The notes beneath the pieces are model-generated. The model had not been told where the DNA came from. It did no database searches and was given only the letters and a program-made list of their open reading frames with translations. Both the position numbers and the translations under genes were made by a program. Shown here one piece after another: positions 11,769-14,830 of a DNA stretch of 64,000 nucleotides. This DNA is from Liolophura sinensis (taxonomy: Eukaryota). The stretch is from positions 22,489,513 through 22,553,512 of the forward strand of contig NC_088304.1 of assembly GCF_032854445.1 (NCBI RefSeq), read 5' to 3'. The first letter of the stretch is position 1, and every line of letters begins with the position of its first letter.

Positions 11769-11885
11769 GTTGTTTGGTAAGTTACGGATCCGGAGTTCCG
11801 TCATCGGTTGGGTTCATGTGTCCCTGCAAAGCCGGTCTTACCTGTACTCCGAGTGGCTACTCAGACATGCCCCTGGGACCCATGG
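11769..11885 (+). CDS. Prokineticin/astakine-like gene, exon B2. It encodes the C-terminal half of domain 2: (G)CLVSYGSGVPSSVGFMCPCKAGLTCTPSGYSDMPLGPM(G).
   Basis: The acceptor is cgcttgcag|gt and the donor is cccatgg|gtaagtggcc. The exon is 117 nt and contains the CPC motif. Its last 30 nt plus the donor are the seed of the downstream 78-bp satellite. Confidence 0.55.
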
Positions 11886-14830
11886 GTAAGTGGCCTTAGA
11901 CCTGACTCCAGCCGTAAGCTTGCGTGTTGGCTGACTACTCAGACATGCCCCTTGTGTCGTTGGGTAAGTGACGTTAGGCTTGACTCCAACAGTAAGCCGG
12001 TGTGTTAGCTGACTATTCAGACATGCCCGTGGGGTTGATGGATAAGGGGCGTTAGAGTTGACTCCAGCGGGTAACTGATGTGTTAGCTGACTACACAGAC
12101 ATGCCTCTTGGGTCGATGGGTAAGTGACGTTAGACTTGACTCCAACAGTAAGCCGGTGTGTTAGCTGACTATTCAGACATGCCCTTGGGGTTGATGGATA
12201 AGGGGCGTTAGAGTTGACTCCAGCGGGTAACTGATGTGTTAGCAGACTACACAGACATGCCCCTTGGGTCGATGGATAAGTGGCATTCGACTTAACTTCA
12301 ACGGAAAGTTGGTGTGTTAGCTGACTATTCGGACATGCCCGTGGGGCCGATGGGTAAGTGGCAGACCGGACTCCTACAGTAAGTTTGCGTGTTAGCTGAC
12401 TACACAGACATGCCTCTTGGGTAGATGGGTAAGTGGGCTTAGAATTGACTCTAGCGGTAAGCTCGTGGGTTAGTTGACTACTCTGACATGTCTATGGGGT
12501 CTATGGGAAAGCGGTCTTAGACTTGATTCCAGCAGTAAGCTTGTGGGTTAGCTGACTACTCTGACATACCACTGGGGGCGATGGGTAAGTGGCCTTAGAC
12601 CTAACTCCTACAGTAAGCTTGTGGGTTAGCTAACTACTCTGACATACCACTGGGGCCGATGGGTAAGTGACTTTAGGCTTAACTCCAGCAGTTAGCTTGT
12701 GGGTTAGCTGACTACTCTGACATACCCCTGGGGCCGATGGGTAAGTGGCCTTAGACTTAACTCCTACAGTAAGCTTGTGGGTTAGCTGACTACTCTGACA
12801 TACCCCTGGGGCCGATGGGTAAGTGGCCTTAGACCTAACTCCTACAGTAAGCTTGTGGGTTAGCTGACTACTCTGACATACCACTGGGGCCGATGGGTAA
12901 GTGACTTTAGGCTTAACTCCAGCAGTTAGCTTGTGGGTTAGCTGACTACTCTGACATACCCCTGGAGCCGATGGGTAAGCGGTCTTGGACTTAACTCCTA
13001 CAGTAAGCTTGTGGGTTAGCTAACTACTCTGACATACCACTGGGGCCGATGGGTAAGTGACTTTAGGCTTAACTCCAGCAGTTAGCTTGTGGGTTAGCTG
13101 ACTACTCTGACATACCCCTGGAGCCGATGGGTAAGCGGTCTTGGACTTAACTCCTACAGTAAGCTTGTGGGTTAGCTAACTACTCTGACATACCACTGGG
13201 GCCGATGGGTAAGTGACTTTAGGCTTAACTCCAGCAGTTAGCTTGTGGGTTAGCTGACTAATCTGACAAAGCACTGGAGCCGATGGGTAAGTGACCTTAG
13301 ACCGAACTCCTACAGTTAGCTTGTGGGTTAGCTGACTAATCTGACATACCCCTGGAGCCGATGGGTAAGTGGCCTTAGACTTAACTCCTACAGTTAGCTT
13401 GTGGGTTAGCTGACTACTCTGACATACCACTGGAGCCGATGGGTAAGTGGCCTTAGACTTAACTCCTACAGTTAGCTTGTGGGTTAGCTGACTACTCTGA
13501 CATACCACTGGAGCCGATGGGTAAGTGGCCTTAGATCTAACTCCTACAGTTAGCTTGTGGGTTAGCTGACTACTCTGACATACCACTGGGGCCGATGGGT
13601 AAGTGGCCTTAGACCTAACTCCTACAGTAAGCTTGTGGGTTAGCTGACTAATCTGACATACCACTGGAGCCGATGGGTAAGTGGCCTTAGACTTAACTCC
13701 TACAGTTAGCTTGTGGGTTAGCTGACTACTCTGACATACCACTGGAACCGATGGGTAAGTGACTTTAGGCTTAACTCCAGCAGTTAGCTTGTGGGTTAGC
13801 TGACTACTCTGACATACCACTGGGGCCGATGGGTAAGTGACTTTAGACTGGACCTCAGCGGTAAACTTGTGGATTAGCTGACCACTCTGACATAGCACTG
13901 GGGCCGATGGGTAAGCGGTCTTGGACTTAACTCCTACAGTTAGCTTGTGGGTTAGCTGACTACTCTGACATACCACTGGGGCCGATGGGTAAGTGACTTT
14001 AGACTTAACTCCTACAGTTAGCTTGTGGGTTAGCTGACCACTCTGACATAGCACTGGAGCCGATGGGTAAGTGGCCTTAGACTTAACTCCTACAGTTAGC
14101 TTGTGGGTTAGCTGACTACTCTGACATACCCCTGGGGCCGATGGGTAAGTGGCCTTAGACTTAACTCCTACAGTTAGCTTGTGGGTTAGCTGACTACTCT
14201 GACATACCACTGGGGCCGATGGGTAAGTGACTTTAGACTGGACCTCAGCGGTAAACTTGTGGATTAGCTGACCACTCTGACATAGCACTGGGGCCGATGG
14301 GTAAGCGGTCTTGGACTTAACTCCTACAGTTAGCTTGTGGGTTAGCTGACTACTCTGACATACCACTGGGGCCGATGGGTAAGTGACTTTAGACTTAACT
14401 CCTACAGTAAGCTTGTGGGTTAGCTGACTACTCTGACATAGCACTGGAGCCGATGGGTAAGTGGCCTTAGACTTAACTCCTACAGTAAGCTTGTGGGTTA
14501 GCTGACTACTCTGACATACCACTGGAGCCGATGGGTAAGTGACTTTAGACTGGACCTCAGCGGTAAACTTGTGGATTAGCTGACCACTCTGACATAGCAT
14601 TGGGGCCGATGGGTAAGTGGCCTTGGACCGAATTCCTACAGTTAGCTTGTGGGTTAGCTGACTAATCTGACATACCACTGGAGCCGATGGGTAAGTGGCC
14701 TTAGACTTAACTCCTACAGTAAGCTTGTGGGTTAGCTAACTACTCTGACATACCACTGGAGCCGATGGGTAAGTGACTTTTGCTTAACTCCAGCAGTTAG
14801 CTTGTGGGTTAGCTGACCACTCTGACATAC
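11886..14830. repeat. Satellite with a 78-bp unit in about 38 copies. The first units are more diverged. Each unit equals the last 30 nt of exon B2 plus the first 48 nt of the intron, so every unit carries a GGGTAAGTG donor-like site.
   Basis: The exon end ggctactcagacatgcccctgggacccatgg|gtaagtggccttagacctgactccagccgtaagcttgcgtgttg is followed directly by the units gctgactactcagacatgcccc...gatgggtaagtg.... The 500-aa minus-strand ORF 13176-14678 is a 26-aa repeat artifact of this array. Confidence 0.9.

Follow-up and report, generated by a model that had tools for sequence, protein, structure and literature searches.

We analysed a window of 64,000 nucleotides from the chiton Liolophura sinensis (NCBI RefSeq assembly GCF_032854445.1, contig NC_088304.1, forward-strand positions 22,489,513 to 22,553,512; coordinates below are positions within this window). 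It holds five plus-strand coding exons of a gene for a protein of two tandem ten-cysteine domains and, in the last intron of that gene, a 3-kb array of 78-bp units that begins inside the preceding exon and reiterates its 5' splice site. Spliced together, the five exons reproduce residues 14-195 of XP_064612669.1 ('uncharacterized protein LOC135476546', Liolophura sinensis) at 100% identity, stop codon included. This record was the top-ranked of 62 relatives recovered by exhaustive HMMER search; a word-index protein search with the joined peptide of exons B1 and B2, as the third and fourth of the five are labelled, gave no match.

Domain 1 is encoded by two exons, at 7585-7720 for its first half (VAVAVGKRFC...NAGS) and at 8441-8554 for its second (CYLSL...VPYGEMG). 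The exon at 10502-10639 (TCVRPSC...NIGD) supplies the tenth cysteine of domain 1 together with the first half of domain 2, whose second half (CLVSYG...CPCKAGLTCTPSGYSDMPLGPMG) occupies 11769-11885; this exon also has an ortholog in two short-read contigs described below. The last coding exon, at 15995-16038 behind the acceptor tttttattcag/GA (a slash marks the splice junction throughout), reads (G)TCTSGLVEKLSPR plus TAA and carries the tenth cysteine of domain 2, so that in each domain the tenth cysteine is encoded at the start of the next exon. The authentic donor of the fourth exon is a phase 1 site, TGG/GTAAGT, at 11883-11891. Joining 11885 to 15995 gives ...GPMG-TCTSGLVEKLSPR followed by the stop, the same reading as in the RefSeq protein, and defines a last intron of 4109 nt (11886-15994). 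Exon 1, with the signal peptide MRVVIFVLVAVCI, was not found in the window by tblastn.

These results uphold the initial annotation in calling exon 11769-11885 and its donor genuine and in placing the array in the last intron, but not in assigning the exon to a gene B separate from an upstream gene A: XP_064612669.1 unites all A and B exons in one two-domain protein. A stretch just after the array (cccttag/GACAGATCTGT..., reading ...QICKWHC...) had been a candidate for the last exon and was discarded in favour of 15995-16038. The protein database lists a single product, the RefSeq model with the 11885-to-15995 junction, and a search with the full protein matched XP_064612669.1 only, with no alternative isoforms on record.

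The two domains share their gene architecture. The junction that ends domain 1 (8554/8555) lies at the same phase 1 position as the donor at the array and has the same ATGG/GTAAGTGG sequence, and a Haliotis rubra homologue has an intron at this position after both domains. No tandem array was called by Tandem Repeats Finder (TRF) at 8555, after this paralogous donor. BLASTN between the domain-1 and domain-2 halves of the gene recovered only shared SINE-like repeats; the internal domain duplication is so old that DNA comparison gains nothing from it.

On sequence grounds we place the host gene in the prokineticin/astakine (colipase-fold) superfamily. The ten cysteines of each domain, including the CC and CPC motifs, are invariant across 21 homologues, and a profile of this 21-member family searched against the PDB matched Bv8 (E=8.5e-6), an MIT-like spider toxin (E=1.1e-5) and MIT1 (E=4.4e-5), followed by Dickkopf and colipase. 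Against Pfam PF06607 the host protein scores 19.9 bits, below the gathering cut-off of 21.6, with two homologues narrowly above it (21.8 and 22.5 bits), and several homologues carry the UniProt name 'Prokineticin domain-containing protein'. Family members occur in gastropods, bivalves and the annelid Owenia. The label 'astakine-like' previously given to the gene is thus sound at the level of the superfamily only.

Turning to the array itself, TRF calls a single 78-bp repeat at 11857-14831 (38.2 copies, 86% matches, 0% indels, score 3907). Segmentation unit by unit resolves 38 full units, one of 75 nt with a 3-nt deletion and one of 77 nt with a 1-nt deletion, in line with the roughly 38 copies first proposed. 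A partial 39th unit follows: its segment 14818-14858 aligns to unit positions 2-42 (nhmmer, E=5e-8), and repeat homology stops at 14858. The whole array therefore spans 11857-14858 and comprises 38 full units plus a 42-nt partial unit (14817-14858), or 38.5 copies, and it makes up the first 2973 nt (72%) of the last intron. A 29-nt core of the unit has 30 matches allowing at most 3 mismatches, all of them within the array, against 0 in shuffled sequence. The element is in short a head-to-tail array, inside a gene, of a unit in the 10-200-bp range.

Unit 1 (11857-11934) is 65/78 identical to the consensus and consists of the final 29 nt of the exon (11857-11885), followed by GTAAGTGGCC and the remainder of 49 nt of intron. 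The terminal monomer of the array thus holds an authentic exon-intron boundary (exon tail, splice site and intron), which was confirmed by comparison with XP_064612669.1, with the paralogous junction and orthologous contigs and with the gene structure in Haliotis, and the splice-site sequence is reiterated in the intronic copies. The proposal that the first unit is the genuine junction, contiguous with its source exon, is borne out: unit 1 starts within the verified exon. The exon share of the unit had been put at 30 nt, with a quoted string of 31; its exonic origin holds, and the length becomes 29 nt, no repeat homology having been detected upstream of 11857. Neither was the array seeded precisely at the exon boundary, which follows the first 29 nt of the unit. 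The array edge carries TGGCT as a short direct repeat, which was considered as a signature of slippage and rejected on inspection of the sequence, being out of register with the 78-bp period. The partial unit at the distal end shows an exon-tail-like stretch again, followed by TCT/GTAAGTGGC.

With the array masked, neither nhmmer nor BLASTN found a significant copy of the unit in the other 61 kb of the window. Three non-significant nhmmer matches lie outside the array, the second-ranked of which (E=2.1) is the paralogous donor at 8542-8562. The term satellite used in the initial annotation does not suit a 3-kb array with one locus in the window; unless a genome-wide search shows otherwise, the array is a minisatellite. 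A minus-strand open reading frame (ORF) of 500 aa runs through it at 13176-14678, and exists because 78 nt correspond to 26 codons without a stop in that frame; it has no homologue and no record in the protein collection.

Could the array, or its length, be an artefact of a repeat expanded or collapsed during assembly? The L. sinensis reference, originally issued as L. japonica, a name since corrected (PMC12441733), combines a hifiasm assembly of PacBio HiFi reads with Omni-C data; its HiFi coverage is modest, at 14x (PMC11068029), a point in favour of an artefact. Against this, the mean HiFi read of 8.3 kb (PMC11068029) exceeds the 3.0-kb array, the many distinguishing variants of its units stand in non-periodic order, which helps correct assembly, and tandem units recur right after the orthologous donor in independent contigs, assembled from short reads of two runs of a related taxon. 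Because a variant-rich array of this length fits well within single reads, we regard an artefact as very improbable.

The content of the unit bears on whether the exon or the repeat is the older. The exon tail within it encodes YSDMPLGPMG, an instance of the C-terminal motif of the family, [DE]-[IVM]-P-L-G-E-x-G-x-C, in which, among 21 homologues, P81 is invariant and G83 and G86 are conserved in at least 90%. The D-x-P-L-G-x-x-G motif is also found in gastropod, bivalve and annelid homologues and in domain 1, with the intron at the same place. The array consensus retains YSDIPLGPM(G). Exon tail and consensus differ at five sites (unit positions 7, 13, 16, 22 and 25), all of them third codon positions, four synonymous and one an M/I replacement; the chance of five differences all falling on third positions is about 0.002 (C(10,5)/C(29,5)). 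Polarised with the exon of one related-taxon contig (L002, introduced below), these differences suggest two changes of the L. sinensis exon and three of the array. Variants between units hit all codon positions, and the copies are free of coding constraint. Unit 1, which continues to serve as exon end and donor, remains under it.

The motif of the exon tail is far older than the array, and the exon therefore seeded the repeat; judged from these comparisons, the direction was from exon to repeat, as the initial annotation had proposed in deriving the array from an exon 3' end and donor, the copied tail encoding P81, G83 and G86 of the family motif. The reverse order would start from a 78-bp satellite that already existed, possibly dispersed or carried by a transposon, and that came to provide the exon end and donor by exonisation. 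The terminal partial unit is easier to understand as part of an inserted or recombined array than as the product of a clean duplication in place, and the search for further copies covered the 64-kb window. The age of the exon, whose tail motif is conserved across gastropods, bivalves, an annelid and domain 1, speaks the other way, as do the failure to find any other copy in the window and an Rfam search of 7000-17000 that gave no match. We accordingly give the repeat-first order very little credence.

The array is rich in splice-site sequences. Counted at the donor register of the unit, TGG/GTAAGT is present in 30/38 full units including the authentic one, which leaves 29 pseudo-donors with the identical 9-mer; 4/38 units read GTAAGC and 4/38 lack GT, so that the donor has decayed in 8/38, and the partial unit reads TCT/GTAAGT. 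A second donor-like sequence, (A)GTAAGC, lies 28 nt past the main one in 15 units (at 11914, 11992 and 13 more places), and GTAAG[TC] motifs total 50 in the array. At the acceptor-like register 30/39 units have AG, with the exact string ACTTAACTCCTACAG in 14; unit 1, the real start of the intron, has no AG there. The reiteration of the donor reported previously is therefore real, though the supposed 38 or so copies of GG/GTAAGTG come down to an exact 9-mer in 30/38 units, with 4 lacking GT, and an acceptor-like AG is found in 30/39 units and absent from 9/39, unit 1 included, as opposed to being present in every unit.

Consequences of using these sites can be predicted from the reading frame. 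All 29 pseudo-exons running from acceptor to donor (27 of them of 49 nt) contain a stop in the frame that the exon dictates, as had been claimed of the 49-nt pseudo-exons, and read-through of the real donor gives ...GPMGKWP followed by a stop. Splicing from a downstream donor, like the inclusion of a 49-nt pseudo-exon, would place a premature stop before the last cysteine of the protein; cryptic splicing or nonsense-mediated decay is a possibility only.

Evidence on the age of the array comes from the Logan short-read contigs L001 (SRR26493809) and L002 (SRR26493808), which include exons A2, B1 and B2 and are orthologous to the window at ~72-81% identity over the aligned exon and intron segments. 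They derive from a related taxon, presumably another chiton. After the orthologous donor (…CCCATTG/GTAAGTA) two units follow head to tail in the register of the window (nhmmer, E=2e-14 and 1e-12), and then the first 8 nt of a third, where both contigs end, a stop within the repeat being as expected of short-read assembly. With at least two units behind the orthologous donor, the first duplications predate the split of the two taxa, and alignment of the contigs with the window places the founding duplication in a shared ancestor. The two introns upstream of the array-bearing one have roughly one-third of their length in the related taxon (~650 vs 1947 nt and ~355 vs 1129 nt), the extra length in L. 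sinensis consisting in part of SINE-like insertions.

The units differ in divergence along the array. Mean pairwise identity is 79% among units 1-9 (11857-12555), the old, diverged left edge, and 90% among units 10-38 (12556-14816), the homogenised core. Several core units are identical (11=14=16=18, 15=17, 26=31 and 27=32) and multi-unit duplications occur there too, which together imply recent turnover; at the left edge, a two-unit duplication is made up of units 2-3 and 4-5. No clear higher-order period emerged, identity remaining at 0.87-0.91 for every lag from 1 to 12 units.

The surroundings of the array are themselves rich in repeats. In the window, 25 tandem arrays with a period of at least 10 cover 16.1 kb (25%), and 13 of these are at least 300 bp long. 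Large ones lie at 21010-22041 (44 bp), 26801-27787 (35 bp), 47992-49227 (83 bp) and 55779-56886 (34 bp). Positions 1-7584 are presumably intron 1 of the same gene. They contain a 47-bp array (1-4046) with 85 copies or more, cut off by the start of the window, as well as a 30-bp array of 4.9 copies (6909-7054). Small as the gene is, its introns are crowded with minisatellites. SINE-like copies are present in its introns and flanks at 10132-10388, 15085-15332, 7892-8047 and 16431-16522, sharing the tail ...ttctccccaccagaattctggcc...aaataaataaat. One pair shares 91% identity over 257 nt, and the match between 10132-10388 and 15085-15332 seemingly extends past the A-rich tail. Farther downstream, a plus-strand ORF of 173 aa at 30133-30654 contains cysteines and resembles a real coding exon (…PCAVC…, …CGSLPCP…); it matched no Pfam family and has no identical record in the collection searched, and a 49-52-bp array (30840-31248) lies ~190 nt downstream of it.

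A second boundary-spanning array was found in a homologous two-domain prokineticin-like gene from another class of molluscs. Intron 2 of Haliotis rubra LOC124290128 (QXJH01000458.1; L003, positions 3968-5480) is filled by a 64-bp array of 22.5 copies with 95% matches, plus 2 x 46 bp, whose last unit takes in the authentic acceptor along with ~7 nt from the start of exon 3 (gttgatttgttccag/GGTGTTA). Unlike the chiton array, it sits at an acceptor boundary and in a different intron. It is young, given its 95% matches, and absent from H. rufescens, in which the orthologous intron measures 146 nt and has a single copy of the repeat sequence (L004, positions 2487-2640). The H. rubra array is an independent event, and boundary-spanning minisatellites arise repeatedly and independently in these repeat-prone genomes.

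Whether such arrays are more than an expected outcome of repeat-prone sequence is a separate matter. Independent boundary arrays were found at 2/6 examined loci of the gene family, at the 5' splice site in the chiton and at the 3' splice site in H. rubra. By rough estimate, random seeding would give ~0.1-0.2 boundary-containing arrays per window (25 arrays multiplied by a ~40-nt unit and by the 9 splice boundaries that the gene has in the window, divided by 64,000). Boundary-spanning minisatellites might instead be a recurrent, non-random feature of mollusc genes. Sequence close to splice sites could favour the birth of minisatellites, or arrays could be retained because their reiterated U1-binding or acceptor sites tune expression or feed intron and exon turnover, along the lines of the intron-gain model put forward for amphioxus. 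In either case the chiton array would be an old instance that spans species and plays a regulatory or evolutionary part. We consider such a non-random recurrence quite unlikely.

A role of the chiton array in its own gene deserves weighing in more concrete terms. Reiterated binding sites for the U1 small nuclear ribonucleoprotein, together with the acceptor-like sites, might tune expression of the secreted cytokine-like protein, by unproductive splicing and nonsense-mediated decay, through an influence of U1 on 3'-end processing in the last intron, or as a reserve of donors. Such a role would agree with the 29 pseudo-donors sharing the authentic sequence from -3 to +6, with the AG of the acceptor register in 30/39 units and with the in-frame stop in every pseudo-exon; the array has outlasted the split from the related taxon, in its first units at least, and the human IFI6 and CBS genes use their two nearest pseudo-sites (PMC1557585). 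The copies themselves, however, bear no sign of selection, having decayed donors in 8/38 units and variants at every codon and motif position, and the second unit of the related taxon carries a weaker GTAAAT. Nor is there an array at the paralogous junction, in the H. rufescens homologue, or over a mapped coding exon in Lottia, Gigantopelta and Ruditapes, three loci at which the exon mapping, by tblastn matches of at least 90% identity only, is incomplete. Since tandem arrays make up 25% of the region, no special cause is needed for one more, and a function for the array seems to us rather unlikely.

Arrays of this kind have precedents, and the origin described in the initial annotation as rarely documented is documented in five human genes (PMC1557585) and in the amphioxus 'mirages' (PMC3087553). 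In intron 7 (IVS7) of F7, a minisatellite of 5-9 x 37 bp has its first monomer across the exon-intron boundary (PMC1557585, Borensztajn et al. 2006). Its pseudo-sites were functional but silent by experiment, the most upstream site being selected in a 5'-to-3' process (PMC1557585). That article also lists IFI6 (6-16), with 25 pseudo-sites in intron 2, CBS, with 15-20 repeats in IVS13, LMNB2, with 10-15 x 100 bp, and PDGF, with 16-18 x 81 bp in intron 4; F7, LMNB2 and PDGF use the authentic site only, and IFI6 and CBS add the two nearest pseudo-sites constitutively (PMC1557585). In amphioxus, tandem duplications of exon-intron boundaries, termed mirages, were described in the globin genes BflGb6 and BflGb9 (PMC3087553) and, with units of 10-72 bp, in Adh3 (Canestro et al. 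2002, as cited in PMC3087553). Mirages leave normal splicing undisturbed and were proposed as a route to intron gain, and their clusters show concerted evolution inside, with the edges excluded from homogenisation (PMC3087553).

The chiton array resembles F7 in having an authentic donor followed by identical intronic pseudo-donors and a unit built of exon tail plus intron. It differs in scale, with 38.5 x 78 bp and 29 nt of exon per unit compared with 5-9 x 37 bp and 4 nt, and in that site choice was shown by experiment in F7 and is predicted here. As in IFI6, CBS, LMNB2 and PDGF, it is the donor that is reiterated, and the unit size and copy number come near those of LMNB2 and PDGF; unlike these four mammalian cases, the chiton array is longer (3 kb) and common to a related taxon. 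With the amphioxus mirages it shares its invertebrate setting, the AG and GT within the units and the pattern of edge versus core homogenisation. The BflGb6 clusters are small, with 3-6 units of 150-160 bp against the 38.5 x 78 bp found here, and amphioxus mirages are described as polymorphic and somatically unstable (PMC3087553) while the chiton array was read from one haplotype. Taken together, the array shows every structural feature of the mirage class, exceeds the examples cited in size and adds a phylum to the class, without being a new kind of element.

We therefore favour, with good though not complete confidence, the interpretation of the array as a boundary-spanning, mirage-type intronic minisatellite that is neutral and leaves splicing to its most upstream donor. 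The founding segment of 78 bp, which joins the final 29 nt of the penultimate coding exon to the 5' splice site and 49 nt of intron, was duplicated in tandem before the two taxa split, and slippage and unequal exchange would then have amplified it to 38.5 units, the distal core being homogenised recently and the exon-proximal units left to diverge. By analogy with F7, the spliceosome would choose the most upstream, exon-adjacent site, leaving the 34 downstream GT-containing donor copies as bystanders that are expected to be silent or to give minor products only. The array is most likely tolerated by virtue of this preference for the first donor next to the exon, and probably has no function, being a tolerated by-product of a genome very rich in minisatellites.

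Several points weigh against this interpretation. The non-integer copy number (38 full units plus 42 nt) is not explained by a single 78-bp duplication in place; the partial unit could possibly reflect a deletion at a later stage, or an array that arose between two similar segments. The single-locus status of the unit holds for the 64-kb window. Unit-to-unit orthology between the taxa cannot be assigned, identity to either of the first two units being 73-74%. Finally, the silence of the pseudo-donors is carried over from mammals.

For gene annotation the locus presents a hazard, as dozens of perfect decoy splice sites and long spurious ORFs, such as that of 500 aa on the minus strand, can mislead gene predictors. 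For the study of splicing it offers a clean and unusually large natural case of 38 extra copies of an exon tail and donor, common to a related taxon, and could serve to test outside vertebrates the F7 rule that the most upstream of identical 5' splice sites is used. Together, the chiton and abalone cases show that mirage minisatellites extend beyond amphioxus and mammals.

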